Below are positions 47,315 to 64,000 of a DNA stretch of 64,000 nucleotides, piece after piece. The position numbers and the translations under genes are program-made. The notes below the pieces were generated by a model that did not search any database, was not told the origin of the DNA, and was given only the letters and a program-made list of their open reading frames with translations. Origin of the DNA: Prevotella sp. (GTDB lineage: Bacteria; Bacteroidota; Bacteroidia; Bacteroidales; Dysgonomonadaceae); the NCBI GenBank assembly GCA_031285625.1, contig JAITVV010000084.1, positions 64,001 to 128,000 of the forward strand, given 5' to 3'. The stretch's first letter is position 1. The number at the start of each line of letters is the position of its first letter.

Positions 47315-47851
47315 ATGCAGTCCTCTGATAAACGGCTTTATCAGATCGCTCTCACACAGGTTGCGGGAGTTGGTGATATTATTGCCCGCAAACTCTTACA
47401 GATAATAGGTGATGAAGAGGCTATTTTCAAATCAAATAGAAAATCACTGATAAGTACAGGTATTTCATCAAAGATAGCAGATGAGATACTAAATACGAAA
47501 GTGCTCGAAAGAGCAGAAAAAGAACTGAACTTTGTAGAGAAAAACAAAATAAGCACTTATTTCATCAGTGATAAAGACTATCCACATCGCCTCAAAGATT
47601 GTAGTGATGCTCCTATTCTACTCTACTTCAAGGGTAATGTAAATTTTAATGCAGAAAAGGTTATCAGTATTGTTGGTACCAGAAAATCGACAAGTTATGG
47701 TAATAGCTTTTGTGATTCGTTTCTGAAAGATATATCCTCCATTTTTCCAGACACATTAATTGTAAGCGGACTGGCCTATGGTATAGATATACAGACTCAT
47801 CAATCGGCATTGAAATATAATCTGCCTACAGTCGGAGTACTGACATATTAG
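47315..47851 (+). pseudogene. dprA: dprA 5' fragment, interrupted by the integrated element
   Basis: YP..LK...DAP..LY.KG, IVGTRK.T.YG, IVSGLAYGID..H, PTVGVL, then stops (TY*) at 178 aa where DprA normally continues (AHGLD..YP) to roughly 370 aa. Confidence 0.9.
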
Positions 47852-47857
47852 ATGTAT

Positions 47858-47887
47858 TTTGCAGTATATATTTTTTTCATATCTTTG
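47858..47887 (+). promoter_or_regulatory. Host-type sigma-A promoter for the integrase
   Basis: TTTG (47858-61), 18 nt, TATCTTTG (47880-87), 17 nt before the ATG. Confidence 0.55.
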
Positions 47888-47904: not shown

Positions 47905-49761
47905 ATGGGAAAAGTAATATTGTTAATTAGGGTAAGTACTGACAGGCAAGAATATGAAGCACAGACCACAGAGTTAGTACAGTTTGTTAAATCATTTGGT
48001 TATGGTGATAATGACATAATATTGATTCAGGATAAAGAATCAGCTATCAAGTTATCAGAAGAAGAAAGGCAAGGATTAAATAAGATGAAAGAAGCCATTG
48101 TTAATAATGATGGCAATATTGATGCTGTATATTGTTGGGAGTTATCACGCTTATCAAGACAACCAAAGATATTATATTCTATCAGGGATTTATTATTAGA
48201 AAAAAGAATTAATTTAATAGTAAAAGAACCATTTTTAAAATTATTGGATGATAATAAAGAACCTGTATCTACATCAATGATTCAGTTTGGATTCTTCATT
48301 ACATTGGTTGAAAATGAAATGAGGGATAAGAAAGCAAGGTTTGATAGGGGTAGAAAAAATAAAGCATCACAAGGTAAATATGTAGGCGGTTATATTCGAT
48401 ATGGATATACAATAGATTCCAATAAGAAGTTTATTATAAATGAAGATGAAGCACAAATAATAAGGCTTGTATACAATTTATATGAGACGGGTAAATATTC
48501 ACATAGGACAATAGTAGCTGAATTGAAAGAATTGGGGTATGGTAATGATATTGCTAATATTGGCAAGGTACAGAACATATTGAATGCAGAGGAATATACA
48601 GGTGTTACCAAGAATAAAAAATTAAACATATCTTTTCCAATAATCATATCAAAGGAACAATTTAATATATGTAGGCAAATAAGCAATGGGAATAATGATA
48701 AGTTGAATAAATCAAGTGAGATATATTATTCACAGTTATTATTGGAATGTTCTTGTTGTGGTAAGCATTTACATCCAAAGAAATCAGTAAACTTATATGG
48801 ATGTCCTGATAGGACTGTTTTAAATGGTTATCAGATGGATAATATAATTGAGAAGTGTGTAGACCAAAACTATTTAAATATGTCTATAATGGATAGTTTA
48901 TTATGGTATGTGGCAAAAGAAAAAGAAGCAATTACAATATTATCTTCCACTGAGGAAGAAATAAATTTAAATAATTTAAAGATTGAAGATTTAAAGAAAA
49001 AAGCGGATAGCATTTATAATAGGTTAGATGATTTAAAAAAGAGAAGAAGCAGATTAGGTTTATCCTTCAGTGATGGAATGATAGATGAAGAAGCATATAG
49101 CAAAAGAAAGCAATCATTGAATGAAGAAGAAAATTTAATTAATAGTGATAAGTTGAATTATATAAATGAGATTGAAAGATTAGAAAAAGTTAATGCTAAT
49201 ATTCATTCCAATTTAATTAATATGAATAATTGGAGAGATATAAATGAGGGCAAGAATATATTAAAGAATTTGGATATTATTATTGGTGAACAATTGGATA
49301 AGATTGTTGATGATAAGACAAGATATAATATAATCAGGAAACAAGTAAAGAATGTTGTTGTTAAAAAGATTGATGATATAACTAAACAGTTGGTTATATA
49401 TTATAATGATGAAAAGTTTCAAAAAGAAAGTTTCTTTTATGAAAAGAAATCCAAACAATCAAAGCCATCCATATACAGGTTTAGCAACAAGACCATATTT
49501 GATATTAGGTCACGTGATAATAAAGATTATGAAATTAAATTTCCAATTGTAAAAGAATATAAAGGCAAGCCACAATTAGGGCAATATGATAAGATAAAAG
49601 ATAAGATGAAACAAGACCCTGAATATGCTGAGAGGAAAAGAAAGAAAGGATATTATTATACAAGGTGTTGGAAGATAAAGAATGATACAAAATTAACAAC
49701 ACAGCAAAAAGAAGAACAAATAAATAATTTAACTTCAAAATATAAAGAATGGATTATCTAA
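47905..49761 (+). CDS. Large serine recombinase (integrase)
   Basis: RVST catalytic Ser, ELSRLSR, YGY recombinase domain, CSCCG...C zinc ribbon, coiled coil. Confidence 0.95.
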   Translation: MGKVILLIRVSTDRQEYEAQTTELVQFVKSFGYGDNDIILIQDKESAIKLSEEERQGLNKMKEAIVNNDGNIDAVYCWELSRLSRQPKILYSIRDLLLEKRINLIVKEPFLKLLDDNKEPVSTSMIQFGFFITLVENEMRDKKARFDRGRKNKASQGKYVGGYIRYGYTIDSNKKFIINEDEAQIIRLVYNLYETGKYSHRTIVAELKELGYGNDIANIGKVQNILNAEEYTGVTKNKKLNISFPIIISKEQFNICRQISNGNNDKLNKSSEIYYSQLLLECSCCGKHLHPKKSVNLYGCPDRTVLNGYQMDNIIEKCVDQNYLNMSIMDSLLWYVAKEKEAITILSSTEEEINLNNLKIEDLKKKADSIYNRLDDLKKRRSRLGLSFSDGMIDEEAYSKRKQSLNEEENLINSDKLNYINEIERLEKVNANIHSNLINMNNWRDINEGKNILKNLDIIIGEQLDKIVDDKTRYNIIRKQVKNVVVKKIDDITKQLVIYYNDEKFQKESFFYEKKSKQSKPSIYRFSNKTIFDIRSRDNKDYEIKFPIVKEYKGKPQLGQYDKIKDKMKQDPEYAERKRKKGYYYTRCWKIKNDTKLTTQQKEEQINNLTSKYKEWII

Positions 49762-49802
49762 CGATAATCCATTTTTTTATGTATATAAGGTAAATATCAA
49801 TA
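49748..49802 (+). promoter_or_regulatory. Element repeat unit 1: hairpin + TATGTATAT-N5-AAATATCAATA
   Basis: AATGGATTATC-taac-GATAATCCATT, T run, motifs at 49778-86 and 49792-802. Confidence 0.8.
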
Positions 49803-49817
49803 ATATAAATTTGATAT

Positions 49818-50558
49818 ATGATAAAGATAACAATTGATAATGTTGATTACAATATACCTTCTGAATGGTCAGATGTAAAATTATCCCAGTATGAAAAATG
49901 GTTTGAATGTGACATAAAAGAAAAGGAAGATGAAATTGCATTTGTATCTAATGTATCAGGAATTGATTTAAACCTATTAAAAACGCTTCCATTGAGTTTT
50001 TATAATGATTTGGTAGATATAATAGGATTCTCATTAAAAGATGCTAATATGCTTCCTAAATCGAATATAATAATTGATGGTATTCAATATTCAATTAACT
50101 CAAGGAATGAATTAACATTGGATGAATGGGTAGATACAGAAGCTGTATTAAAAGGAAATGATAATAAGTTAAGTTCAGTATTAGCAATTGTATGTAGACC
50201 AACAGGTGAAATATATAATAGTAATAGATTATCTGAAAGGATTGAATTATATAAGAATATTACAATGGATAAGTTGTTTCCCTTATTCAGTTTTTTTTTG
50301 ACCTTAAAAGAACAATATCAAAAGATTATGAATACCTGTTTAATGGTTCAGGAAGTAACAAACCAATTGCACCTGCATATAGAGAATTTAGTAAAAAATG
50401 GGGGTGGTATAAGCAGATTGCAGAATTGGCGAATGATAATATTCAAGAAATGGATAACATTCTCAAACTCAAAGTTATTGAAGTATTTAACTTCCTTTCT
50501 TATCAGGTTGATAAGCAAAAAGCAAAAGAAGAACAACAAAAGTTTGAAGAACAATTAA
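49818..50558 (+). CDS. Phage structural/assembly protein (tail-chaperone-like) with -1 frameshift site; alternative product ends at 50581
   Basis: N-terminus Y.IP.EW.DV.L.QY; T9 run at 50291-99; both downstream frames open. Confidence 0.65.
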   Translation: MIKITIDNVDYNIPSEWSDVKLSQYEKWFECDIKEKEDEIAFVSNVSGIDLNLLKTLPLSFYNDLVDIIGFSLKDANMLPKSNIIIDGIQYSINSRNELTLDEWVDTEAVLKGNDNKLSSVLAIVCRPTGEIYNSNRLSERIELYKNITMDKLFPLFSFFLTLKEQYQKIMNTCLMVQEVTNQLHLHIENLVKNGGGISRLQNWRMIIFKKWITFSNSKLLKYLTSFLIRLISKKQKKNNKSLKNN

Positions 50559-50590
50559 GAAAGAATAATATGAATAATTAAAATAATATA

Positions 50591-51187
50591 ATGATAAAAA
50601 AGATAATATATTTATTTGAAAGGTTATCCAAACAGCATAAATTAATTCAATCATTCTACTATAACCGCAATTATGAAATTGGTAGTGGCAATGAAAAGCA
50701 TCCTTTATTATGGTTGGAAGACCCGATGTATATAAATATAACAGGTTCAAATAATAATATAATTGAAGCAGATATAAATTTCAGTGTGTTATTGATACCA
50801 AATGAAGATACAACCTTTGTAGATTGTCAGGATTTAGCATTTAGTACAGGTCATAACATCATAGAATATATTAAAAAGTATAAACCATTTGGATTTATAA
50901 TAAAATCAGGTACAGAATCTGCATTAACATTGCAACATTATTATGATAATAATACAGCAGGTGCAAGATTTTCGTTTGTTTTACAGAATGCCAATCCTGC
51001 AAGTATATGTTTATTGGATGAGCATTTTGAATCAGGTGTATTTAATTGTGATTTCAATGATGATTATTTAAAATATTGTAATGATAAAGAAGAAGATAAG
51101 GTTAATGATTTTGATGTAACCCCTGCAAATAATTGCACAACCTTTGTAGATAAATTACCTGACTTCACATTAAGGACATCAAGATGA
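50591..51187 (+). CDS. Phage protein, tail-completion/terminator-like
   Basis: Size, position and beta-rich pattern (YPLL-like 'HPLLWLE'); function inferred. Confidence 0.45.
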   Translation: MIKKIIYLFERLSKQHKLIQSFYYNRNYEIGSGNEKHPLLWLEDPMYINITGSNNNIIEADINFSVLLIPNEDTTFVDCQDLAFSTGHNIIEYIKKYKPFGFIIKSGTESALTLQHYYDNNTAGARFSFVLQNANPASICLLDEHFESGVFNCDFNDDYLKYCNDKEEDKVNDFDVTPANNCTTFVDKLPDFTLRTSR

Positions 51188-51654
51188 ACAATAAAGTAAA
51201 AACCATATTAAAAGCCATTAGTGAGGATATTGAAGTTCTTGCACAAATCATATTTGAGACTGATACAATAAGTAATAATACCAAGGTAAGTAAAAATACT
51301 TTAAAAGATAGTCAGTTATCGAAAGATGTAGAAGTAAAGATACAAGAATTGGGTAATCCTATAATAGATATAATGTTCAATCATTATATAGTTTATTTAG
51401 AATGGGATAGACCACCAATGTATGGTAAGATGCCACCTATATCTGATTTACGTGATTGGGCTATTAAAAATGATATTCCTGATGATAATAGTACATTATA
51501 TTTGATAAGCAGGGCAATATGGAGAGATGGACATAAAGGCAGACCAATAACAAAAAACTTAATGATAGAGATTGAAGATAGGTTTGATAAGGAATGGTTT
51601 GATTTATTATTTGAAGGAATCATTGATGATTTAATTCAAATATTTAATGAATAA
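51184..51654 (+). CDS. Phage neck/tail-completion protein (HK97 gp10-like)
   Basis: GKMPPISDLRDWAIK...LISRAIWRDG pattern typical of these proteins. Confidence 0.55.
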   Translation: MNNKVKTILKAISEDIEVLAQIIFETDTISNNTKVSKNTLKDSQLSKDVEVKIQELGNPIIDIMFNHYIVYLEWDRPPMYGKMPPISDLRDWAIKNDIPDDNSTLYLISRAIWRDGHKGRPITKNLMIEIEDRFDKEWFDLLFEGIIDDLIQIFNE

Positions 51655-51662
51655 AATATATA

Positions 51663-51715
51663 GAGTATCATTAGATACTCCATTCTTTTTTATGTATATG
51701 TTATAAATATCAATA
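51663..51715 (+). promoter_or_regulatory. Element repeat unit 2
   Basis: GAGTATC-atta-GATACTC, T run, TATGTATAT at 51691-99, AAATATCAATA at 51705-15. Confidence 0.8.
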
Positions 51716-51729
51716 TTTAAAAAATTATA

Positions 51730-53691
51730 ATGTCGAATATTATAACTACAGATATAGCAACAATAGTTGATAGTGATAAGATTACATTGGTTAATAATCC
51801 ATCATTTATACAGTTTATAGGTAATCAGGGTCTTAATGAAAAATTAGATACATTGGTTATTAAATTCAATGGGATAATGCAACCAAATGATAATTTTGAA
51901 AATTTATATTATATTGGTTTCACTTATACTGACAATGGTATTCTATATAATGTTAAATATGTTCAAACTGTTGATGCAGAATATGCTGCACAATATAATA
52001 ATATCTTCTATCAAGGTAATACAGTAGTTGATACAGTTAGGAATTTACAGCAGAAGTTATTAGATAATAACTTCTTGGTTAATAATTTTATCATTAGTGC
52101 TAATAATGATTTGCTATCTATTAAGCCAAAAGTAGGTGATGCAAGCAAAGCATATACATTATCATATATAACAGGTTATGCAACCACAACTGACCCACAT
52201 ATTGAAATAAATGGTGCTATAACATACATTACACCATCAGTTATATCAAGTGGTACAGAAGAAGTTGATAATACCATACCAACATTTACATTAACAGTGA
52301 ATAGTTTTACATCAAATGATGCATTACCTGCTGCTGCTTTATTAACCTTTGTTGAAAACAACAGTAAAAACAGTTATAAAATACAGGGAACAACTGATAA
52401 AAGTTTGATTGATGGTAATAAAAATTACTTTTATCTTAATTCCAATCCTGTAATAACCTGTAATAACCTTATTCAGGCATTGTTAACAGTACCATTTTTC
52501 AAAAATAACTTCATTTTAAGTGTTGATGGGGATGAATTTTCATTGGTTGGTAAGCGAAATAACCCTAATTTTTCATTCAATGTTACATATAATCCATCAT
52601 TTTGCAGCATAAATAACACACAATATACAATAAATAACAGTAATGTATTATATAATAGTCAAATTGAGTTGGATATATACAAGAATAATCAGTATGTAAC
52701 CACTGTATCTAAGTCATATATTGATAGTGATGTATGGTTTGATGTAAATAATATATTAAATAGAACAATGAAATCATATCCAAACTGTTTATTCTTACCA
52801 AATAATATATTAGACAGTGGTACAACGATGAAATATAATTACAATAGTAAGTATATTAAAAATTATGATACACAATTTATTAACTTCAGTGAAAATAAAT
52901 ATGTTGTAGATGGCTTTGTTAGAACATTAGAACCAAATGATATAAACAGTTATATTTATTCAGCAGATGAAGATGTTGAATGTAATATACTTACCAATAA
53001 GTTAGACAGGATATATAATATTGGTGAAGATATATCAGCTAATATTATAATAGAACCAAATGATGATACATCATATACAATTGGATTATTAATTAAATAT
53101 TATGAGAATAATAAATTAGTTAATGAAAATATAATTGATACTGATAATGGTAAAGACTTGATTAGTAGTATATATGTTACTGCTGATAAAATATTAATTA
53201 CAGACAGGACACAATTTATAGATGTTGTTTGGGTGAAGATACCAAATGAAAGCCCTGATGACTTTTATGAAATTTCATCTTATATCAGATATAAGATATT
53301 ACGTGAATGTAATGATAGTTATGGTTTTATGTTTTTGAATAAATTAGGGGGTTGGGATATATATTACTTCAATAGTGATTTCAATACAGAATTTAAAACT
53401 GAGGTAACCACTTCATTTAAAACATTGCAACCAAATTATAAACTTAGTGATACTTACGAAAAGGTTGAATTTAAAGAAACAGAAGAAACTTTTGCAATTA
53501 AATCAATGGTGAATAAAGAGACTGCTGAATGGTTAAAAGAATTATCAACAAGTAAATATGTATATTCATTATTTGATAATAATAGGTATGTGATTGTACA
53601 AGATTTTGATTTAAGTATTTCGGATAAAGATTTATTTGAGGTCACAATGAAATATACCTATTCTGACACATATAATACTATTTTAAAATAA
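51730..53691 (+). CDS. Phage tail structural protein
   Basis: C-terminal FLNKLGGWDIYYF...WLKEL..S..VY pattern seen in Bacteroidota phage tail genes; internal duplicated domain (T..NL.Q.LL...F..NNFI.S twice). Confidence 0.6.
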   Translation: MSNIITTDIATIVDSDKITLVNNPSFIQFIGNQGLNEKLDTLVIKFNGIMQPNDNFENLYYIGFTYTDNGILYNVKYVQTVDAEYAAQYNNIFYQGNTVVDTVRNLQQKLLDNNFLVNNFIISANNDLLSIKPKVGDASKAYTLSYITGYATTTDPHIEINGAITYITPSVISSGTEEVDNTIPTFTLTVNSFTSNDALPAAALLTFVENNSKNSYKIQGTTDKSLIDGNKNYFYLNSNPVITCNNLIQALLTVPFFKNNFILSVDGDEFSLVGKRNNPNFSFNVTYNPSFCSINNTQYTINNSNVLYNSQIELDIYKNNQYVTTVSKSYIDSDVWFDVNNILNRTMKSYPNCLFLPNNILDSGTTMKYNYNSKYIKNYDTQFINFSENKYVVDGFVRTLEPNDINSYIYSADEDVECNILTNKLDRIYNIGEDISANIIIEPNDDTSYTIGLLIKYYENNKLVNENIIDTDNGKDLISSIYVTADKILITDRTQFIDVVWVKIPNESPDDFYEISSYIRYKILRECNDSYGFMFLNKLGGWDIYYFNSDFNTEFKTEVTTSFKTLQPNYKLSDTYEKVEFKETEETFAIKSMVNKETAEWLKELSTSKYVYSLFDNNRYVIVQDFDLSISDKDLFEVTMKYTYSDTYNTILK

Positions 53692-53694
53692 ATG

Positions 53695-53748
53695 AATGGA
53701 GTATCATTAGATACTCCATTTTTTATGTATATATCCCAAATATCAATA
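53695..53748 (+). promoter_or_regulatory. Element repeat unit 3
   Basis: AATGGAGTATC-atta-GATACTCCATT, TATGTATAT at 53724-32, AAATATCAATA at 53738-48. Confidence 0.8.
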
Positions 53749-53764
53749 TTTTAAAATATTATAA

Positions 53765-56538
53765 ATGCAACTTATAGAATTTTATATCAATGATAGGTTA
53801 ATAGATTATACCAATGCAAATGATTTAGGAATTAAATTATCAAGACAAATTTTTAAGCCATCTGAATTTACATCAAAAGATTCACAAATGTCTTATAAGA
53901 TAACCATTCCAAATAGTGTTACCAATAATGAGATATTCAATTATTCAAATGTTGAAGAAGTAAAAGATAAATTCAATTATGAATATACAGCAAAGGTATA
54001 TGTGGATAACATATTAATCTTTGATGGGTACTTTATGTTGCAGGAGATAACTGAAAAAAAATATATAGGTAATTTATATATTCCTGTATATAAGACCATC
54101 AAAGATATATTTGGTAATAATGTGATGAATAAACCATCTTCCAATACTGAAAAAAACAAATGGTTATTTAATATGGATGGTGCATCAGATATAAGTGCTT
54201 GGAATGAACAAGTATTAACCAACTTTGAAAATAACAGGGCATCTGATTGTTTATTCCCATATATATTATATGGATTGATTCCAAAAATAAGTATTAATCC
54301 AAATGATTATGTAAATGGTGAAATGGTTGGTGAATATACTGATAAGAATGTATATGATAAATATGCAAGATTGGGTTATGAAGATATACCACCTGCAATG
54401 AATGTATTGGAGACAATTAAACATATGTTTGTATCTAATGGTTTAACTATTTCAGGTACAGCATTTAACGATGATAGGTTGAAACATCTATATATGTCAT
54501 ATTCCAATCCAACAGATTATATACAAGAATGGAATTATGGTGATTTATCCACCATTGAAGTAAACGGTTCTTGGTCAATGTGGGATATGAATAATACATT
54601 TGAATGGCAAATTTCACAAAACAGTGATAGTTATGGTTCATATTATGGTACTAATATATTAGATTCAAATAGATTTATATTAAATTACTATACTGATACA
54701 GGGACAAATACCATATATAATTCTTATGATGAGATAAAAAATGCTGTAACAAGAAAAAGAAATAATTTAAGTATTACCATACCTCAATCAGGCTACTATA
54801 AAATAACCTTATCGGGTAATTTATCATTAAATACAAGTGTTTACCGAGGTGAATTAGTTGATAATATAACAGGTAAAAAATTCACAGGTGTTATACAGCA
54901 TAATAATGACACTCGTAATAATAGCTTTCAAAGGTCTATGTATGAGATTCAGGTATTACGTGATTTTGGTGAGGGTAGTTTTACATATGATAAAGTTGTA
55001 GGTCATTATAATCAACCTAATTTTCCTCAGACACAAGCAGGTGATACTAATCAATATCCTAAATATTATCCATTTGATGGTGAGGATATGATTATAGACC
55101 CTCAAACAAATATTAATTTTATTAGTGGTTTGCATTGGGGTAATTATGATAATGAATTAAAAGATTATAATCCAATTGGGGGTACATATCCTTCAAATTA
55201 TATGTTTATGAAAAATGGATATAGTTGGAATAATACTTTTTCTCAAAGGCAAAAAATATACCACGTGTATGATAGTGAGAAATCAGCAGGTACAGATGAT
55301 GGTGTTAATTACAGATGTTATAATTTAGATGACTTAACCAATCAATTAGTAACTAATGATGTGGCATTACATTATGGTAAGATAGAAGATATGCCAAATA
55401 ATAATTATTGTGCTCAATCTAATGGAATATATGGTGAGGGGTTGGTACAAAGTGTAATATGGTTGGATAAGGGTGAACATATAACTGTTGCTGTTGTAGG
55501 TAATATGGGTGACTACAAGAAGCAATCATCAGACCATACCCATTTTGATGCAAATATTGTGTTGATAGATAGTGTTAATTTTGATTTAAAAATTGAAAGT
55601 TTCAGAACTGATATTCAATGGAATAATTTTGACAATGATGGAAATTATGATTCAGATAATGTATTATCTTGGAATGATGCTAATACATTCCAAAATGGAT
55701 ATATAGATTTATGTAAGTTTCTTCCATCAGAAGTTAAAATTAATGATTTCTTGGATAATTTTTGTAAGGCATTTAATTTGAATTTGATACAACCAACACA
55801 AAATAATTTTGAATTAAATGTAAAACAGACCAAACAGTTAGGTACAAGTGATATAGTATCATTTGAAGATAAGTTTAATATTAAATTAAGAACAAATGAA
55901 CCATTAGGCTTACCAAGTGAGATTAATATTAAATGGTCTATTGACGAGGAAGAAGAAGGATATGTTGCAAGTGGTGGTTATACAGGTAATGGACAATTTC
56001 AAACAGGTACTATTGGTGGTTCAGTAAGTGAACAATCATCAACATTTAGTTATAATTGGTATAAGGATATTGATTTCTTTGGAGTTTCAGATAGTGTACC
56101 TGTGATATCCAAACACGAAGTATGGGAAAATGGTACAGAAGATTATGGTGAAATGCAGAAGAAATATTATTCAAATTTACCAATAAGATTTTTCTATCCA
56201 AATAGTTTAGTTGCTTGGAATAATGGTAATTATCATTATAATGTCTTCCAATTAGGTAATAATTATGTTGATTTGGTGAGTTTAAAAAATGAATATGACA
56301 TTACAACGATATCCATTTTGGATTATGAGAATAAACAGTATTCAATTTTGAATAATTATTTTACATTGATTACAACAAATAATACCAATTATACAATAAT
56401 AGAGACTTATTTGACACCTGAGGAATATCAATTATTAAATGGTAGGAATATTCAGATTTATATTATGTATCTTCAATTGACCAATATGACCCATTGATGA
56501 AATCACCATCAAAAATTAAATTGATTAGAAAAATATAA
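53765..56538 (+). CDS. Phage baseplate-hub/tail-tip-like protein; ORF ends at 56497 but the likely true C-terminus is in the -1 frame ending at 56538
   Basis: N-terminus I.L.RQI....F..K.S..SY.ITIP....NN.IF, later 'FLP..KI.DFL...CK.FNL'; see finding. Confidence 0.6.
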
Positions 56539-56567
56539 ATATCAATATTTTTTAAAATATAATATTT

Positions 56568-56771
56568 ATGAAAGATTTATTTTGTGAAGATGGAAGTTGT
56601 GATATTTCCAAAGGTAAATTATGTATTCGTAGAGTTATAGGGGCATTAGGATTTATAGCTTTTATTGGATGTATTTATTTGGGAATTTATCATCCATCAG
56701 TTGATTTATTGGCAATGTTAAGCGCATCATTAATTGGTTTAACAACGGTTGATAAATTTATTAAAAAATAA
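56568..56771 (+). CDS. Small 2-TM protein, holin-like
   Basis: 67 aa, two hydrophobic helices, basic C-terminus; preceded by AAATATCAATA at 56537-47. Confidence 0.55.
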   Translation: MKDLFCEDGSCDISKGKLCIRRVIGALGFIAFIGCIYLGIYHPSVDLLAMLSASLIGLTTVDKFIKK

Positions 56772-56791
56772 TATATTAAAATGAAATGAAT

Positions 56792-56846
56792 GGGAACACA
56801 ATAAAGTGTTCCCCTTTTTTTTATGTATATGTGGGAAATATCAATA
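56792..56846 (+). promoter_or_regulatory. Element repeat unit 5
   Basis: GGGAACAC-aataaa-GTGTTCCC, T run, TATGTATAT at 56822-30, AAATATCAATA at 56836-46. Confidence 0.8.
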
Positions 56847-56865
56847 TTTCAAATTACTATTTGAA

Positions 56866-59800
56866 ATGAGTGATAAAAAAACTTTCTCAATAACCATTGA
56901 TGGTTTGGAAAAAGCATATAATGATGTACTTAAATTAAGTGATGCACTGAAAGCAATTAACAGTGTTAATGCTTCTGTTGCTACAACTAATAATGAAGTA
57001 ACATCATCAATTACATCTAAAAGTAAAGCTACTGATGAATTATCAAAGGCACAGGAAAAATTAAATGCTTATGATGCTGAATATCAAAGACAATTAGCTG
57101 AAACAAAAGCTGAATTATCAGCAAATAATAAAGAAATTCAAAATAATATTAAAGTAACACAAGCATTAGCAACAGTTGAAGCAGGTGTTACAGATACTTA
57201 TGCTGATAAACAAAGGTTATTAACTGCATTGGGGACTACGATTAAAAATATGTCCACCACAACTGATGCTGAGATAGCTCAACAGAATGAATTAATTGCA
57301 CAATATAAGGCATTAAATGATGAATTAACAGCTACTGATGAACGTATGGGTAATAACCAACGCAAAGTAGGTGCTTACGAAAATGCAACCAAATCATTGA
57401 AAGGTCAGTTAAGGGAAATGACAGAGGAATTGGCAACAATGATTGCTAATGGTGTTCAACCAACTGATGCTGCCTATCTTGATTTAGCGACACGAGCAGG
57501 GGAATTACGTGATGCAATGGGTGATGCACAAGGTGCTATTACTAAATTTGGTTCTGATACAAGGGGATTAGATAATATTATATCAGTCGGACAAGGTATT
57601 ACATCCATATTTGGTACTGCACAGGGTGTAATGTCAATGTTTGGTCAATCGGGTGAACAGGTTGCTCAATCTATGGAGAAGATGATGGGTGTAATGACTA
57701 CCTTACAATCACTCCAAGAATTGCAAAATCAATTAACTACACAAGGTACTGTGTTCAATAAATTATATACTACTGTATTACAAGCGATGGGATTAGCTAA
57801 AAAAGCTGATATAGCTAATACAGTATCACAGGCAGCAGCAACAACAGGTGCAAGTGTAGCAACAGGTGTTGCCACAACAGCAATGAAAGCATTTAGGATT
57901 GCATTAGTTAGTACAGGTATTGGTGCTTTAATTGTTGGTTTAGGTCTATTAATATCCAATTTTGATAGTGTTAAAAAATGGGTGGTTGATTTAGTTCCTG
58001 CATTAGGCAATATGGGTGAGGCTTTTGATGAAGTTAAATCTGTTGTGATGGGTATTGGTCAGGCATTATTGGAATTTGTTATTGCTCCATTTAAGACTTT
58101 GATAGCTGTTGTACAGGGATTTATGGAAAATGGTATTGATGGCGCATTAGCAGCAGGTGAAGCACAGGTTAAAAGTTCACTTGATGTGGTTGGTAATTAT
58201 GAAAAAGGTTATCACGACCAAAGTGTTAGGAATGCAGAAGCAGCAGCCAAAGCAAAAGCAGAAGCATCAGCAACTGAATTAGACAATTTAATAAAAGATA
58301 ATGAAGCTAAATTGGGTTCAGATTGGAAATATTCAACTGAAGGTAGAAAAGCATATGCTAATTTCTTTGATGCTAAAAAAGCAATGTATGGTGATGATAA
58401 AGAAAAGTATGCTGAGGCTCAAAGAGAGGCTTGGAAATTTATGGCTGAGACTACCAAACACGATGCAGACGAAAGAAAAAAACGTTCTGATGCAGGTAAA
58501 CAGGCAGCACAAGAAGCTAAACAAAGATTGGATGATTATAAAAAATCATTGGAAGCATTCACCAAACAAACGAATACATTAGAGATTAATAATGAAAAAA
58601 CAAGAATTACCAATGCAAAAGATGCTGCTGAAAAAATGGTTGCTACAACCAAAGATGAGTTAACCAAACGAAATAATGCTATAACAGAAGCCTATGGTAA
58701 ACAACAGATTCTACAACAAAAATTAAATTTAGATGAAATTGCAGCAGTTGATAAACAATATAATGAATTGATTGAAAAAGCTAAAAAAGCTAAAAAAACT
58801 AAACAAGATATAAGTAAAATTGAAGAAGAAAGACAAAATCTATTATCTGAATTAAGAACAAAATTCACATTAGAAGAAATTAATTTAAATAAAGAAAAAA
58901 ACGAAAAAATTAAATCTTCCAATAAAGATTTTGATGATGATGAAAAAGAGAGGGCTGAAAATGCTAAAAAGTTAGCACAAGATAAGGTTAATTTTGAGAT
59001 GGAATTGATTGATAAACAATTTAAAACCATTAATGAATTAAAAGAAAACTTTACTGCAAGGGGTGGAGCATTAGATTTAATTGATGTTGACCAAACAAAA
59101 GCAAATCTTGCTGTCATTCGTGATGAATTGGATAAACAAAAAACCTCATTAGTAAAATATAAAGATGAATTAGAGAAAAATACTACACTTGACCCCAAGG
59201 CAAAAGAAAAAGCATTGGATGATATTAATGCTAAAATTAAAGTTAATGCAAAAGATATTGCTGATAATACCCAACAACAAACCCAAGTTATGACTAACTA
59301 TTGGGCTGATTTTTCGGATAAAGTTGGTGGTTATATATCTGTTGTTAGTGATTCTTTAAATTCAATATTTGAAACAGTTGGTTCTTTCTTTGATATGAAG
59401 TTAGAAGAAGCACAAGAAAAATTAGATGAAATATCTGAAAAATATGATGAAACTGTTGAATTACAAGAAGAAAGCAATGAAAGGTTATTAGCATTACAAG
59501 AAGAAGCTAAAAATGTATCAGGTGGTAGGGCATTAGTTGTACAGGATGAAATTTCTCGTGAAATGGCATTAAATAAAGAACTTGCCAACCAAGAAAAACA
59601 ATTAGCAAAAGAAAAAGAAGCCCGTGAAAAAGAAGTTGCCAAAATTCAAAAACAACAAAAGAAAGCTGAATTGATGGGAAATATTGTTAGCGGTTTATCA
59701 GGTGGTGCATTAGCTGTAATTAATGCATTACAGGTACAACCATTCCCATTAGGGTTAGCATTAGCTGCTGTTGCAGGCGCAATGAGTGCTGTACAGGTTG

Positions 59801-60243
59801 GTATAATGTCAGCTCAATTAGGTAAGTTAGAAAAGGGTGGATTATTACAAGGTAAACGACATTCAGAAGGTGGTATTCCTGTTGGTAATACAGGTATTGA
59901 AGTTGAAGGTGGTGAATATGTTACCAATCGCAATACAACATCAAAGAATTTGGGTCTATTAACCTACATAAATAGTCAGGATAGGGAATTAGGTATTAAT
60001 GATTTTGTTAGTTATTATGATGATAGTACAGGTAAAATAATGCCTAATCCAAGATTTAGAAAAATGTTTGCTGATGGTGGACAAATGGATATATCAAATA
60101 TATCAAATTCATCAGGTACAAACAATGATGCAATCTTAAATGCATTATCAGGTATTAATTTTTCACCTGTTGTTAGTGTGGTTGATATAATTGATTCTAC
60201 TGCACAAGTAACAAGTGTAAGAGATTCAGCAGGATTTTCATAA
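56866..60243 (+). CDS. Tape-measure-like protein
   Basis: Long Ala/Lys/Glu helical protein, ALVSTGIGALIVGLG segment, C-terminal KGGLL.G.RH..GG...EVEGGE; start moved to ATG 56866 (MSDKK), downstream of the repeat unit. Confidence 0.8.
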   Translation: MSDKKTFSITIDGLEKAYNDVLKLSDALKAINSVNASVATTNNEVTSSITSKSKATDELSKAQEKLNAYDAEYQRQLAETKAELSANNKEIQNNIKVTQALATVEAGVTDTYADKQRLLTALGTTIKNMSTTTDAEIAQQNELIAQYKALNDELTATDERMGNNQRKVGAYENATKSLKGQLREMTEELATMIANGVQPTDAAYLDLATRAGELRDAMGDAQGAITKFGSDTRGLDNIISVGQGITSIFGTAQGVMSMFGQSGEQVAQSMEKMMGVMTTLQSLQELQNQLTTQGTVFNKLYTTVLQAMGLAKKADIANTVSQAAATTGASVATGVATTAMKAFRIALVSTGIGALIVGLGLLISNFDSVKKWVVDLVPALGNMGEAFDEVKSVVMGIGQALLEFVIAPFKTLIAVVQGFMENGIDGALAAGEAQVKSSLDVVGNYEKGYHDQSVRNAEAAAKAKAEASATELDNLIKDNEAKLGSDWKYSTEGRKAYANFFDAKKAMYGDDKEKYAEAQREAWKFMAETTKHDADERKKRSDAGKQAAQEAKQRLDDYKKSLEAFTKQTNTLEINNEKTRITNAKDAAEKMVATTKDELTKRNNAITEAYGKQQILQQKLNLDEIAAVDKQYNELIEKAKKAKKTKQDISKIEEERQNLLSELRTKFTLEEINLNKEKNEKIKSSNKDFDDDEKERAENAKKLAQDKVNFEMELIDKQFKTINELKENFTARGGALDLIDVDQTKANLAVIRDELDKQKTSLVKYKDELEKNTTLDPKAKEKALDDINAKIKVNAKDIADNTQQQTQVMTNYWADFSDKVGGYISVVSDSLNSIFETVGSFFDMKLEEAQEKLDEISEKYDETVELQEESNERLLALQEEAKNVSGGRALVVQDEISREMALNKELANQEKQLAKEKEAREKEVAKIQKQQKKAELMGNIVSGLSGGALAVINALQVQPFPLGLALAAVAGAMSAVQVGIMSAQLGKLEKGGLLQGKRHSEGGIPVGNTGIEVEGGEYVTNRNTTSKNLGLLTYINSQDRELGINDFVSYYDDSTGKIMPNPRFRKMFADGGQMDISNISNSSGTNNDAILNALSGINFSPVVSVVDIIDSTAQVTSVRDSAGFS

Positions 60244-60284
60244 TTACCTATAATAATTAAAATATCAATATAGTAAAAATTAAT

Positions 60285-61478
60285 ATGATAATTACGACAA
60301 CAGATAGTTCAGTTAAAATTGAAGACAATAGTGGTATAGTTTGGACAGGTGGATTAAATACATTTGTATTAACTTATTCAGCACCTGAGGATAGTGTAAC
60401 ATTATTTGATGACACAAGATTAATAGCAACAGGTAAATTAACTGATTCAACCATAAATGGTACTCAGTTAACAGGTGATAATATTGATAGCGCATTACAG
60501 GATATATTTAGTACAGCAGGTAGTAATAGTGGTACAGGTGGTGTTAGTTCAGTTAATGGTTATACAGGTAATGTAGCTTTAACTGCTGCTGATGTAAATG
60601 CTTATACACAAGACCAAGTAGATACTATGTTAGGTCAGTTAAATACAGCAGAATTTGCAGGTCCATATGCAACAATAGATGTTATACCAACACCATATGA
60701 TACAAATGACTTATATTTAGTTGGTGATGCAGTTCCATATGCTATCTATGCGAATGTTGCAGGTGTCTTAACACAAATAGGTAGTTCATCTGTTGATTTA
60801 TCTGATTATTATACTAAAGATGAAATTGATTCAATTGGTGAAGCTGACCCAATTTTTAATGCTTGGAAAAATGGTACATCAGTTGTGATTGGTAGTTCTT
60901 CGACAGGTACAGGTATAGCCATTGGTAATATTGCACAAGGGGCAGGTATTGCAATTGGTAAAAATTCAGTAAGTTCAGCAAATAATAGTATATCACTTGG
61001 TAATAATGCAAGGTCATTAGGTACAGGTATAGCCATTGGTTATTTGGCAGCAGCTAATATTAATTATGGTGTTGCTATTGGAGCATCTTCTTCAACAATT
61101 GCAACTAATGGTGTTGCTATTGCATATAATGCCTACAATGCAGGTAATAATGGTGTTGCTATTGGCTACAATGCAAGTACATTAGGTCAAAATTCGGTTG
61201 CATTGGGAACACAATCACAGGCAAAAAACCCTAATGAGATAGGTATTGGAGCAAATAATAAAATTGTATCAGGTTCAACTGCTGAACAAAATACACAATT
61301 TACTGTTGCATCATATTCTGCTGATACTTCAACTAAAAGAAATGCCCTAGAAATTCGTCAAAATGATGATATATGGATTTTTATGAATAATAATCAAGTA
61401 ATGATTCAAGATTATTTTAATCAAATAGAGGATTTAAAAGTACAAATAGAGGATTTAAGAGCACAAATAGGTGGGTAA
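60285..61478 (+). CDS. Tail fibre-like protein with YadA/Hep-Hag head repeats
   Basis: VSSVNGYTGNV.LTAADV, DLSDYYTK, many (G/S)(I/V)AIG repeats, C-terminal coiled coil; AAATATCAATA at 60260-70. Confidence 0.7.
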   Translation: MIITTTDSSVKIEDNSGIVWTGGLNTFVLTYSAPEDSVTLFDDTRLIATGKLTDSTINGTQLTGDNIDSALQDIFSTAGSNSGTGGVSSVNGYTGNVALTAADVNAYTQDQVDTMLGQLNTAEFAGPYATIDVIPTPYDTNDLYLVGDAVPYAIYANVAGVLTQIGSSSVDLSDYYTKDEIDSIGEADPIFNAWKNGTSVVIGSSSTGTGIAIGNIAQGAGIAIGKNSVSSANNSISLGNNARSLGTGIAIGYLAAANINYGVAIGASSSTIATNGVAIAYNAYNAGNNGVAIGYNASTLGQNSVALGTQSQAKNPNEIGIGANNKIVSGSTAEQNTQFTVASYSADTSTKRNALEIRQNDDIWIFMNNNQVMIQDYFNQIEDLKVQIEDLRAQIGG

Positions 61479-61507
61479 TATAATTTTAAAATATTATAAA
61501 TGAAATG

Positions 61508-61553
61508 AAAGGTGGACATGTCCACCTTTTTCTTTTTATATGAAATATCAATA
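61508..61553 (+). promoter_or_regulatory. Element repeat unit 7
   Basis: AAAGGTGGAC-at-GTCCACCTTT, T run, AAATATCAATA at 61543-53. Confidence 0.75.
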
Positions 61554-61571
61554 AAGTAAAAAATAATTGAT

Positions 61572-63230
61572 ATGACCATAAATGAATTAAAATATCTAAT
61601 TACAACTAAAATATATACAAATGGTATTGAAGATATAACAGCAGAAGATTTACAACAAGTGTTATTGGTTATGGCAGATAGTGCATTTACTGATGTTATT
61701 GACAGATTAGATGTAACACGTGTTGATGCAGCATTATCAGCTAATCAAGGTAAGATATTGAATGATAAAATTACTTCAATATTAAATGATACATCTGATA
61801 TTCATCTTACCATTAATAGTATTCTATCAGAATTGCTTACATTATCAGATAATATTGCAACTGAGGTTAATGATAGAAAAACTGCTGACACAGCCATATT
61901 AGTTAGTTTAGATAATGAAATTACCAACCGCACAAATGGTGATATATCAATTAATACAGCCCTAACAAAAGAAATTCAAGATAGAAAAGATGCAGATACT
62001 GCCATTAATACAACTATTACAAGCAATGTTAATACTATTAATGGTAAAATTAATACTTTAACCAATAATTTAACTGCTGAGGCTGCTATTCGTGAACAAG
62101 CTGATACAGCATTAGGTGTAAGAATTGATAATGAAACTACCAATAGAATAAATTATGACCAAAGATTGGATGATAAAATATCAACTGAGGCTACTGACAG
62201 GAAAAATGGTGATATTCAGATTCAATTAACATTAAATAATGAAATTGAAGAAAGAAAATCAGATGTAAACGCTTTAAATACAAGGGTTACAATTGAAGTT
62301 CAAGATAGAACCAATGCAGATAAATTACTTAATCAACGAATTGATAATCTTCCTGTAATTGATTTAACACCATATTATACAAAGGATGAGGTTGATGATT
62401 TAATTGATAATATTGAAGCAGGTGAAGTAGATTTATCTGATTATTATACTAAAGAACAAGTAGATGAAGCCATTGATGAAGCAGTTACAGGTGGTACAGT
62501 CGATTTATCTAATTATTATACAAAAACTGATGCTGATGCCTTATTAAATAATAAAGCTGATAAATCAACAACTTATAACAAGACAGAAGTAGATAGTAAA
62601 TTTACACCATATTATACATCAGCACAAGTTGATAGTAAAATTGCTGCTATTCCTACTGTTGATTTAACTAATTATTATGATAAGGATGAAATTGATGACC
62701 TATTAGATAATTTATCAGCAGGTGATGTTGATTTAACAAACTATTATACTAAGTTACAAGCAGATAGTTTATTATCAAATAAAGCTAATGTAGGTGATTC
62801 ATATACCAAGACAGAAGTTGATGGTAAAATTGCTGCTATTCCTGCTACTGATTTATCAAATTATTATACCAAGACAGAAGTAGATAGTTTAATACCTGAT
62901 TTATCTAATTATTATACCAATGATGAAATTGATAATTTGCTATTAAATAAGGCTTCTGCTATTGATGTAGCAGGTAAACAAGATAGATTAACAGCAGGTA
63001 CTAACATTACAATAGCAGGTAATGTAATATCAGCAAAAGATACTGTATATGATGATACTGCACTACAATTAATGGTATCACAAAAGCAGAATCAATTAGT
63101 TGTTAGTGATGGTTTAAATTTGGATAGTACCAGATTAACTTTGGATATCCAACACGTGATATTAACACAGGCAGAATTTGATGCATTAACCACTAAATCA
63201 ACCACAACAATATATTATATAAAAGGATAA
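61572..63230 (+). CDS. Upper tail fibre-like protein
   Basis: ALSANQGKIL, about 8 E..(D/N)R..(A/G)D repeats, about 10 DL(S/T).YYTK-type repeats, C-terminal LTQAEFDALTTK...IYYI adaptor motif. Confidence 0.75.
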   Translation: MTINELKYLITTKIYTNGIEDITAEDLQQVLLVMADSAFTDVIDRLDVTRVDAALSANQGKILNDKITSILNDTSDIHLTINSILSELLTLSDNIATEVNDRKTADTAILVSLDNEITNRTNGDISINTALTKEIQDRKDADTAINTTITSNVNTINGKINTLTNNLTAEAAIREQADTALGVRIDNETTNRINYDQRLDDKISTEATDRKNGDIQIQLTLNNEIEERKSDVNALNTRVTIEVQDRTNADKLLNQRIDNLPVIDLTPYYTKDEVDDLIDNIEAGEVDLSDYYTKEQVDEAIDEAVTGGTVDLSNYYTKTDADALLNNKADKSTTYNKTEVDSKFTPYYTSAQVDSKIAAIPTVDLTNYYDKDEIDDLLDNLSAGDVDLTNYYTKLQADSLLSNKANVGDSYTKTEVDGKIAAIPATDLSNYYTKTEVDSLIPDLSNYYTNDEIDNLLLNKASAIDVAGKQDRLTAGTNITIAGNVISAKDTVYDDTALQLMVSQKQNQLVVSDGLNLDSTRLTLDIQHVILTQAEFDALTTKSTTTIYYIKG

Positions 63231-63231
63231 T

Positions 63232-64000
63232 ATGGGAATATACAGCACAAATGATATAAGTTCAATATATATTGGTGGTACTAATATAATAAAGGTATTT
63301 GCAGGGGATATACAAGTTTTTCCTGCTGCTGTAATACCACCTGTAACAGATGAAATTGTTAAAGTAGGCTTTTCAGATGAAATTGGTTCATCTGAAATGG
63401 TATATGTAACCCCATCAGGACAGTATATAATGGGCTTAAATAACTATGAATCCCCAAATACTTATTATACAACAAAAGTATATTCAATAAATAATTCATT
63501 ATCAACATCAAAAGCATTAACTTCTACTGCTAAACCTTATGCAGGTTCAGTTATTGGTAGTGATTTATATATTTATACCAATAACTCAAGTAATGTTGAT
63601 TTTATCTATAAGTATAATGATGCAACTTCATCCTTTACCAAGATAAATTCAAGTACAACTAAGGTTATAAATAATATATTTGATATTGATGGTGTAATAT
63701 ATGCTGTTGGTAATAGGTATGTATTTACCATTTCAAATAATAATTTAGTTGTATTAGCTGATACTACTACTTCCATTAATTTTTATTACGGGGTTAAAAT
63801 AGGTAGTGATATTATATTTAATGCGCAAACAGGTATGTATAAATATAATGGTTCAACCACAACTAAAATATTGAATTTTGGGAGTGTATATAAGCCATAT
63901 TTCGCTAATAATAAATATTATTATCCTTATGGTTCAGGTAGTATTAGCGCATTTTATGTTATTGATGAAAATTTGATTGATAGTATTAAGTCCTTTACAG
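63232..64000 (+). CDS. Putative receptor-binding protein (partial; not in ORF track)
   Basis: Open from ATG 63232 to the window end: MGIYSTNDISSIYIGGTNIIKVFAGDIQVFP..., then propeller-like repeats (GSDLYIY, DGVIYAVG, MYKYNG). Confidence 0.7.
   Translation, partial: MGIYSTNDISSIYIGGTNIIKVFAGDIQVFPAAVIPPVTDEIVKVGFSDEIGSSEMVYVTPSGQYIMGLNNYESPNTYYTTKVYSINNSLSTSKALTSTAKPYAGSVIGSDLYIYTNNSSNVDFIYKYNDATSSFTKINSSTTKVINNIFDIDGVIYAVGNRYVFTISNNNLVVLADTTTSINFYYGVKIGSDIIFNAQTGMYKYNGSTTTKILNFGSVYKPYFANNKYYYPYGSGSISAFYVIDENLIDSIKSFT

Follow-up and report, generated by a model that had tools for sequence, protein, structure and literature searches.

The 64,000-nucleotide (nt) window analysed here (C86:64001-128000, contig JAITVV010000084.1 of the Prevotella sp. 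assembly GCA_031285625.1) contains the left part of a temperate phage of ~32.9 kb, integrated in the genome (G000; 4.84 Mb, 96 contigs) of a Dysgonomonas-like Bacteroidota host. The names that homologues carry in their sources point to Dysgonomonas. A look-up of sequencing runs listed three DNA runs and no RNA run; one of the three contains this sequence, may be its source and is labelled termite gut metagenome. The prophage is low in guanine plus cytosine (GC) and extends 17 kb beyond the window into the adjoining segment L002 (C86:128001-147790). Its first gene (47905-49761, + strand) encodes a large serine recombinase of 618 amino acids (aa; Pfam Resolvase 3.9e-16, Recombinase 3.4e-7; PHROG 95 integrase 5.8e-47) and is followed by about 20 further + strand genes, between which recurs a short motif that most probably forms the core of a phage-specific class of promoters. 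Seven exact copies of this motif, AAATATCAATA, lie in the window, all on the + strand (49792, 51705, 53738, 56537, 56836, 60260 and 61543) and each 14-20 nt ahead of an ATG; dinucleotide shuffles of the window give an expectation of 0.45 copies, and seven were reached in 0 of 100 shuffles. Allowing one mismatch brings only a background-level gain (13 against 9.6 expected). In four copies an upstream half, TATGTATAT, stands exactly 5 nt before the motif, with the spacers aaggt, gttat, atccc and gtggg, and five copies follow a hairpin and T run. In these particulars, as in the stem sequence shared by units 2 and 3 (GAGTATCATTAGATACTCCATT) and in the AAATGAA found exactly before three of the hairpins, the initial annotation of this DNA was accurate.

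The late genes of the window (49818-64000 and on past its end, all on the + strand) encode proteins of 246, 198, 156, 653, 910, 67, 1125, 397, 552 and 336 aa, and the signals ahead of them, likewise on the + strand, are variations on one arrangement. A hairpin with a T7 run, a putative intrinsic terminator, lies over the recombinase stop codon (49748-49773; upstream 62 nt, -18.0 kcal/mol, z -5.0), and is followed by unit 1, TATGTATAT-aaggt-AAATATCAATA-atat-AAA (49778-49809), which ends its motif 15 nt before the ATG of the 246-aa gene, with TTGATAT, complementary to the motif, beside that ATG. The 198-aa gene is preceded by a degenerate copy, TATGAATA-atta-AAA (50569-50583), where the orthologue in a related genome (G146) has a full TATCAATA and a hairpin. 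Unit 2 consists of the hairpin GAGTATCATTAGATACTC with its T run (51663-51680) and TATGTATAT-gttat-AAATATCAATA-N4-AAA (51691-51722), 14 nt before the 653-aa gene; unit 3 has a hairpin of 12 pairs with the unit 2 core and a T run (53694-53721), then TATGTATAT-atccc-AAATATCAATA-N4-AAA (53724-53755), 16 nt before the 910-aa gene. The next copy (56537-56547), 20 nt before a 67-aa open reading frame (ORF), has neither a T-run terminator nor the N4-AAA spacing. Unit 5 combines the hairpin GGGAACAC/GTGTTCCC and a T8 run (56792-56813) with TATGTATAT-gtggg-AAATATCAATA-N4-AAA (56822-56853), 19 nt before the gene of a 1125-aa protein that is tape-measure-like by weak PHROG matches, and here a second hairpin, ATTTCAAAT/ATTTGAAAT, covers the AUG. 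The 397-aa gene, whose product has a YadA-head repeat, has motif and N4-AAA without a hairpin (60260-60277; 14 nt), and the 552-aa tail-fibre gene has the hairpin AAAGGTGGAC/GTCCACCTTT with a T run (61507-61530), motif and N4-AAA (61543-61560; 18 nt) and, complementary to the motif, TTGATATG.

Over the whole element there are 15 promoter-like sites, eight of them beyond the window (L002 414, 1640, 3317, 5411, 7111, 8872, 10024 and 14648); the site at C86:133415 overlaps the final codons of a gene. The shorter box TATCAATA occurs 18 times on the + strand of the element, and 14 of these fall in non-coding DNA, which makes up 9.7% of the element and in which 0.55 copies are expected per strand; on the - strand one of five is non-coding. 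The same asymmetry holds for ATCAATA (+ strand, 20 copies, 14 non-coding; - strand, 19 copies, one non-coding). A consensus was derived from 37 distinct sites in four phages, namely this one, two prophages (G146:C6 and G146:C4) in the genome of another genus of the same family, and a metagenome contig (L040), aligned on ATCAATA, with the flanking positions not used for selection. T precedes this heptamer in 37 of 37 sites, A occupies each of the three positions before that T in 27-32, and AAA lies exactly four bases after the box in 35-36, the copy at 56537 being the sole exception to the N4-AAA spacing. The conserved signal, as read from this alignment, is AAA-TATCAATA-N4-AAA, 13-20 nt ahead of ATGs. 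Five copies have the upstream half TATGTATAT, all of them in this phage, and it appears to be a lineage-specific addition; the bipartite promoter that the initial annotation had proposed is not borne out by this distribution, nor by the 37 sites, which have no fixed -35-like element. The full bipartite pattern TATGTATATNNNNNAAATATCAATA had no match in the viral contig collection, and its 13 matches in the genome contig collection were single, scattered over unrelated taxa and formed no cluster, and were taken as chance.

The hairpins before the motif copies combine a G+C-containing stem-loop, a T run directly after it and a position downstream of a stop codon, the sequence features of intrinsic terminators, and most likely end the preceding unit. 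A consensus scanner reports 14 terminator-like sites between 47000 and 64000 of the window against 4.5 expected, and 13 against 3.9 in L002; five of the + strand sites in the former stretch lie directly before motif copies. A T run of at least 5 is found upstream of 12 of the 15 motif sites, and a strong hairpin (upstream 62 nt at or below -10 kcal/mol, z at or below -2.2) at eight. At three sites the T run of the terminator is only 0-3 nt from the motif, and since it touches the motif there is no room at these for another promoter between terminator and gene. The motif precedes 13 of the 20 late-region genes, from which we infer a late region in 13 units of one to three genes bounded by putative intrinsic terminators: 246-198-156; 653; 910; 67; 1125; 397; 552-336; the protease; the capsid protein with a 184-aa protein; 581-111; 347-208; the portal protein with a 184-aa protein; and an 80-aa ORF. 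The two remaining sites lie before a DUF5675 gene and before the operon that holds a candidate sigma factor gene. The initial annotation had described nearly every structural gene as a single transcription unit with a hairpin and motif of its own, which overstated both the coverage and the insulation of single genes, and its assignment of the motif to virion genes applies to thirteen sites and fails for the two non-structural operons. As a separate matter, the 22-nt stem-loop AAAGGTGGACATGTCCACCTTT occurs twice in the prophage, at 61507-61530 before the tail-fibre gene and inverted at L002:9266-9287, where, read as a - strand terminator, it lies after the leftward genes.

Enrichment of the motif is confined to the element and to relatives close to it. 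The whole genome has 43 exact copies of AAATATCAATA, of which 10, all on the + strand, lie in the element (0.7% of the genome), and the 33 spread over the other 4.81 Mb are on both strands and mostly intragenic. The pattern TATCAATA-N3-4-AAA occurs 15 times in the element, with a gene start after 13, and 62 times elsewhere, with a gene start after six. A scan for AATATCAATANNNNAAA across 170 genomes of the family returned 17 matches in G000, 21 in G146 and at most nine in any other. The initial annotation had predicted enrichment in the element only, and had held that an equal frequency in host DNA would speak against its reading; the frequencies are not equal, and the predicted enrichment is what was found.

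Conservation in related prophages, which it had also proposed to check, extends to orthologous intergenic sites of three relatives. G146:C6, G146:C4 and L040 share synteny with this phage at 43-69% protein identity (68% for the L040 capsid protein), and at matching intergenic sites each has a hairpin with its T run, then a spacer that varies, (A)AATATCAATA-N4-AAA and, 13-24 nt further, an ATG. The stems and spacers are not the same in the four phages; when the region before the BACON-protein gene is aligned across them, invariance is limited to the T run, TATCAATAT and AAA, and the stems are unrelated in sequence. That stems are replaced rather than conserved fits selection for a hairpin as such. 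Within genomes stems are reused (twice in G000, twice in L040 and two to three times in G146), and the stem GGTTGCAGTGATTGCAACC stands before the protease gene in G000 and G146 and before the tape-measure-like gene in L040. The portal protein as probe gave no match in the phage GenBank collection, the genome contigs or the viral contigs, and a search with a capsid-protein alignment turned up a single metagenome locus (L040) and a single IMG/VR contig (L041), the latter identical to G146:C4 at every listed site and not counted separately.

The penultimate gene of the prophage, in its last rightward operon (L002:15947-16585, + strand), encodes a 212-aa protein that is predicted to be a highly diverged member of the sigma-70 family, ECF-like (extracytoplasmic function, group 4), with homology in regions 2 and 4. 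It matches NCBIfam TIGR02937 (E 1e-5) over profile positions 28-164 of 165. A profile of 17 sequences (14 database proteins, the query included, and three genomic homologues) aligned by hhalign to a profile of 10 host ECF sigma factors with 96% probability and E 4e-9 over 127 columns, running from region 2 to the helix-turn-helix of region 4.2, and for one homologue the source gives the name sigma-24 family protein. In the AlphaFold (AF2) model (mean predicted local distance difference test score, pLDDT, 72.6) two helical domains, with helices spanning 36-117 and 137-209, are connected by a linker that is disordered (114-139, pLDDT <50), and the PDB matches listed by Foldseek are nearly all sigma factors (RpoE, SigH, SigE, SigL, AlgU, SigW), the top ones mostly ECF. 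G146 has two sigma homologues, 48-50% identical, on contigs with further motif copies; in G000 and on G146:C15 the motif lies 1.3-1.4 kb upstream of the sigma gene, at the head of its operon. Sigma gene and motif occur together in G000 and two G146 prophages, a small sample, and in L040, which has the motif, the sigma region falls outside the locus. After excision and circularisation the sigma operon would sit directly upstream of the recombinase and late genes.

The initial annotation had expected an element-encoded reader of the motif, whether a sigma factor, an activator or an RNA polymerase; a sigma candidate is thus present, and no element-encoded RNA polymerase gene was found by Pfam, PHROG and motif inspection. 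The D.D.D motif is absent from the 246-, 198-, 156-, 653- and 910-aa proteins. Two large proteins were set aside as polymerase candidates: the 910-aa protein, which lacks this motif and looks like a tail protein, and the 1125-aa protein, which contains it (DFDDD) but has the tape-measure-like matches given above. An Atlas look-up of the 653-aa protein returned unnamed viral clusters only.

The element also carries promoters of the host type, and these are confined to the recombinase and the early and lysogeny genes. Ahead of the recombinase gene TTTG-N18-TATCTTTG (47858-47887, + strand, read from the sequence) stands 17 nt before the ATG, a distance that resembles the 13-20 nt between motif and ATG; the initial annotation had rightly given the integrase a Bacteroidota promoter and noted that the motif itself does not fit the TTTG/TAnnTTTG pattern. 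The early rightward region has TTG/TTTG-N20-TAnnTTTG twice and the leftward genes have a bare TAnnTTTG box. In Flavobacterium johnsoniae, as described in the text available of PMC6847099, the -7 box spans -12 to -5 and lies 4-5 nt from the start site, with non-G bases at positions 3-4, AT-rich DNA upstream and a nearly invariant TTTG half. Like this box, TATCAATA is 8 nt long, starts with TA, has non-G bases at positions 3-4, lies 4 nt from an A-rich region and is preceded by AT-rich DNA. It differs in having AATA instead of TTTG in 37 of 37 sites, and so falls outside TAnnTTTG; TTT(G/A), where present, is ~15 nt upstream of the motif at the commonest spacing, as against 18-20 nt in the host-type promoters of the element, and unlike the primary-sigma promoter of Bacteroidota (-33 TTTG, -7 TAnnTTTG) the motif is not enriched at host gene starts. 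The N4-AAA spacing matches the box-start distance of F. johnsoniae, the start site here being a predicted one only.

We consider it probable that the motif copies are sigma-dependent late promoters, driving units of one to three genes between intrinsic terminators. Expression of the recombinase, of both leftward genes and of the early rightward region would then come from ordinary host promoters of the form TTTG-N18-20-TAnnTTTG, and the 212-aa sigma would direct the host core RNA polymerase to some 15 sites of the form AAA-TATCAATA-N4-AAA, in which TATCAATA would stand where the host has its -7 box (about -12 to -5) and transcription would start at the A run 4 nt downstream, giving leaders of 9-16 nt. 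Thirteen of these sites would serve virion genes, one the DUF5675 gene and one the sigma operon itself, where the motif could provide positive feedback. The hairpins would end the preceding units, dividing the late region into 13 units of one to three genes and insulating it from the recombinase promoter. On this reading the initial annotation would be largely right in kind, with phage-specific promoters, an element-encoded sigma factor and insulation by terminators, and wrong in detail.

Several observations weigh against such promoters or their assignment to this sigma factor. Upstream of -5 the 37 sites carry at most 0.45 bit at any position and no fixed -35-like element, which is unexpected given a sigma-4-like domain in the candidate, and the distance from T run to motif ranges from 0 to 42 nt (mode 16). 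The predicted leaders of 9-16 nt compare with a mean of 33 nt in F. johnsoniae (PMC6847099). The 212-aa protein scores 25.2 bits against TIGR02937, under the cut-off of 42.9; it has no Pfam match, a PDB sequence search with the sigma profile gave nothing below E 1.7, and the Foldseek matches are weak (best E 1.4e-3, TM-scores 0.2-0.4). One genome (G041) encodes a close sigma homologue yet has only two motif copies in the 20 kb examined, and the site counts overstate independence, the G146 copies being related to one another. A further observation, the complementarity between motif and start codon that is taken up below, would count against the promoters only if the motif is transcribed.

The same box might instead be read by the host polymerase with a host sigma factor, primary or ECF, alone or together with a phage activator, the 212-aa protein being otherwise employed. 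The box does share TA, the non-G positions and the A-run spacing with the host TAHHTTTG; at least 45 canonical ECF sigma genes of the host score above the TIGR02937 cut-off, non-structural genes too are preceded by the motif, and the many unannotated phage ORFs could include an activator. It seems unlikely, however, that a host factor reads a box in which the host TTTG half is replaced by AATA at all 37 sites, with no host enrichment (six gene-proximal copies in 4.81 Mb, and at most nine matches in each of 168 other genomes), and in G000 and G146 the motif is accompanied by the sigma gene and heads its operon. We regard as very improbable the view that the units are mainly recombination cassettes comparable to PeSLs, composite terminator/promoter motifs tied to gene exchange (PMC4122927), with gene swapping primary and regulation secondary. 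Stem reuse within genomes, and the presence of GGTTGCAGTGATTGCAACC at different genes in different phages, would suit exchange, as would the unit-bounded 552- and 336-aa tail-fibre genes, which have no match in G146, and the 397-aa gene, which shares only its first 78-88 residues with G146. Set against this, what stays constant is a short signal, specific to one strand and set at a fixed spacing to the ATG, rather than a long homology, and the units also flank conserved core genes in unchanged order; exchange and regulation are in any case not mutually exclusive. Replacement boundaries were compared with units over four genomes, which are too distant for breakpoints to be mapped.

A third alternative places the action of the motif in RNA, as the 5' arm of a start-codon hairpin or as a RegA-like translational operator, with transcription coming from upstream or by read-through. 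Beside the ATG, 19 of 39 sites have a stretch of 6 nt or more, typically TTGATAT, that is exactly complementary to the motif (mean 2.6 and maximum 8 in 500 composition-matched shuffles), and this complementarity between motif and start codon in about half of the sites is new here. The RNA from the motif to ATG+6 folds with a mean minimum free energy of -4.0 kcal/mol (z -2.3) over the 37 sites, at or below -3.4 in 21, with the AUG paired in 20. The 3' arm of the inverted repeat keeps a constant position with respect to the ATG, whereas loops range from 9 to 18 nt. This geometry favours base-pairing within one strand; the operator of a dimeric DNA-binding protein is an unlikely cause at arm spacings that vary so much. 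Start-region structure is also known to affect translation in this phylum (in the text available of PMC6847099). Yet about half of the sites keep TATCAATA-N4-AAA without such pairing, the T run touches the motif at three sites and leaves no room for an upstream promoter, no other element is conserved between hairpin and ATG in the four phages, and no RNA-binding protein was identified. An exclusively RNA-level function is therefore doubtful, and we rate it as improbable as the host-sigma explanation.

The pairing, which gives the RNA view its main support, might nevertheless be combined with late promoters, and we raise this tentatively, as something rather less than likely: the promoter box could do double duty, TATCAATA or a sequence across the predicted transcription start forming the 5' arm of a hairpin that abuts or covers the start codon, so that the AUG is masked in read-through RNA. 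A transcript from the unit's own promoter would lack the 5' arm and be open for translation; folded from the predicted start site, the 37 sites have a mean minimum free energy of -0.18 kcal/mol, at or below -3.4 in none, with the AUG paired in two. A shorter RNA folds less anyway, and only the z-score and the shuffle test carry weight in this comparison. RNA that leaks past the terminator ahead of the unit, for example from the host-type recombinase promoter in the lysogen, would have both arms and a masked AUG. Late genes would in this case be insulated twice, by termination and by translational silencing, and their units licensed by the phage sigma only. If true, such masking of the AUG would matter in a phylum without Shine-Dalgarno pairing, and would be a new insulation device.

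Read as late promoters, these sites represent a variant of a known mode of late-gene activation in phages. Closest among studied systems are, by analogy, the phage sigmas of phiEco32 (gp36) and Salmonella phage 7-11 (gp47), sigma-like proteins that steer the host core polymerase to a phage late consensus, with early genes on the host primary sigma and, in phiEco32, single-element promoters (PMC8948821). With these the present prophage, through its predicted sigma, shares a phage-specific candidate late consensus, of a single element as in phiEco32, and host-type early promoters; it differs in being a temperate phage of a Bacteroidota host with ~15 sites, a box like the host -7 box, putative terminators before most sites and complementarity of the box to the start-codon region. 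The late promoters of T4, TATAAATA, are read by gp55 with gp33 and the sliding clamp. They resemble the present sites in having an AT-rich -10-type box of 8 nt, only one letter off TATCAATA, no fixed -35 element and many copies across the virion genes. T4 is, however, lytic and ten times larger, no homologue of gp55, gp33 or the clamp was detected by Pfam or PHROG in the element, and the candidate sigma here, unlike that of T4, keeps a sigma-4-like domain. Late genes of the Bacillus element PBSX depend on Xpf, a sigma-like late activator of ECF-like type that the element itself encodes; what the two have in common is that a temperate or defective prophage carries such a factor, here a candidate. 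PBSX has one long late operon from one promoter, in contrast to the series of short terminator-bounded units found here. With PeSLs the prophage shares a short intergenic composite of terminator stem-loop and promoter repeated within one genome (PMC4122927). PeSLs are, though, linked to early host-sigma promoters and hyperplastic accessory regions, and the signal here is phage-specific and lies beside core virion genes. Literature searches on phages of this phylum yielded no experimentally studied pair of phage sigma and promoter, nor this motif or sigma, and in the available text of a Bacteroidales prophage preprint (10.64898/2026.06.25.734096) the words sigma, motif and terminator are absent and promoter occurs once, in an unrelated context.

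The locus offers a concrete, testable pair in the 212-aa sigma and the 18-nt consensus. As the motif and the host promoter differ in the second half of the -7 box only, the pair amounts to a natural experiment on Bacteroidota promoter specificity, and it is a candidate orthogonal expression switch for engineering gut Bacteroidota. Short terminator-bounded late units in a 33-kb temperate phage contrast with the single late operon of lambdoid phages. In related prophages the consensus can also help to annotate late genes and to place their true start codons, and it has already moved one start: at L002:382-440 the longest ORF of the protease begins within the upstream terminator hairpin, and is followed by the motif and, 14 nt on, by an ATG, which suggests a true start 18 codons downstream and a protein of 396 aa instead of 414 aa.

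Beyond the window (L002) the late genes encode an XkdF-type protease, a capsid-like 306-aa protein, a BACON-domain protein, an S74 tail fibre, a portal protein and a DUF6712 protein. Distal to the late region are two leftward genes (DUF5053) and then ten rightward genes, mostly without assigned function. The borders of the element are marked by a GC step at 47.9 kb, from ~37% to 25-31%, and GC remains low until ~L002:16.7 kb (C86:144.7 kb). The left host flank is the N-terminal half of dprA (47315-47851, + strand; 178 aa; Pfam DNA_processg_A, profile positions 2-104 of 212), with its TAG just ahead of the prophage, and no further piece of dprA was found in the assembly. On the right flank lies a C-terminally shortened M28 peptidase gene on the opposite strand (L002:16684-17475; profile positions 1-103 of 193). 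With two incomplete host genes as flanks this is not a simple insertion into one gene, and deletion, rearrangement or an assembly join could be the cause. A small membrane-protein ORF 3' of the sigma gene (L002:16582-16851) has PFNC(R/K)PC..FW in common with its G146 counterpart and then diverges to host-like sequence; because its start is shared and the remainder host-like, the right attachment junction seems to fall inside this ORF, near L002:16727. The C-terminus of the membrane protein would then differ between the integrated and the circular phage.

Distant homologues of three prophage proteins are widespread in the family: the sigma and the portal protein, 28% and 45% identical in their copies elsewhere in G000, on C52 (276805-277377 and 311615-322902), and the 653-aa protein, at ~30%. 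The C52 copy has host-like GC and no TATCAATA sites. An alternative box for it, TTATCTAT, has three intergenic copies there but 858 genome-wide, and no claim is made for it. Of 34 genomes in the same genus 28 have a sigma homologue, as do 10 of 10 in a second genus; for the 653-aa protein the figures are 31 of 34 and 9 of 10. In complete genomes the two homologues are 49-90 kb or more apart. These widespread homologues could represent a conserved, perhaps domesticated, phage-derived gene set. Within the prophage itself, the two tail-fibre-like genes contain in-frame repeats of ~60-94 nt (60771-60830 and 62323-62933) with the common core GATTTATCTAATTATTATAC, and one such repeat is common to the 397-aa and 552-aa genes.

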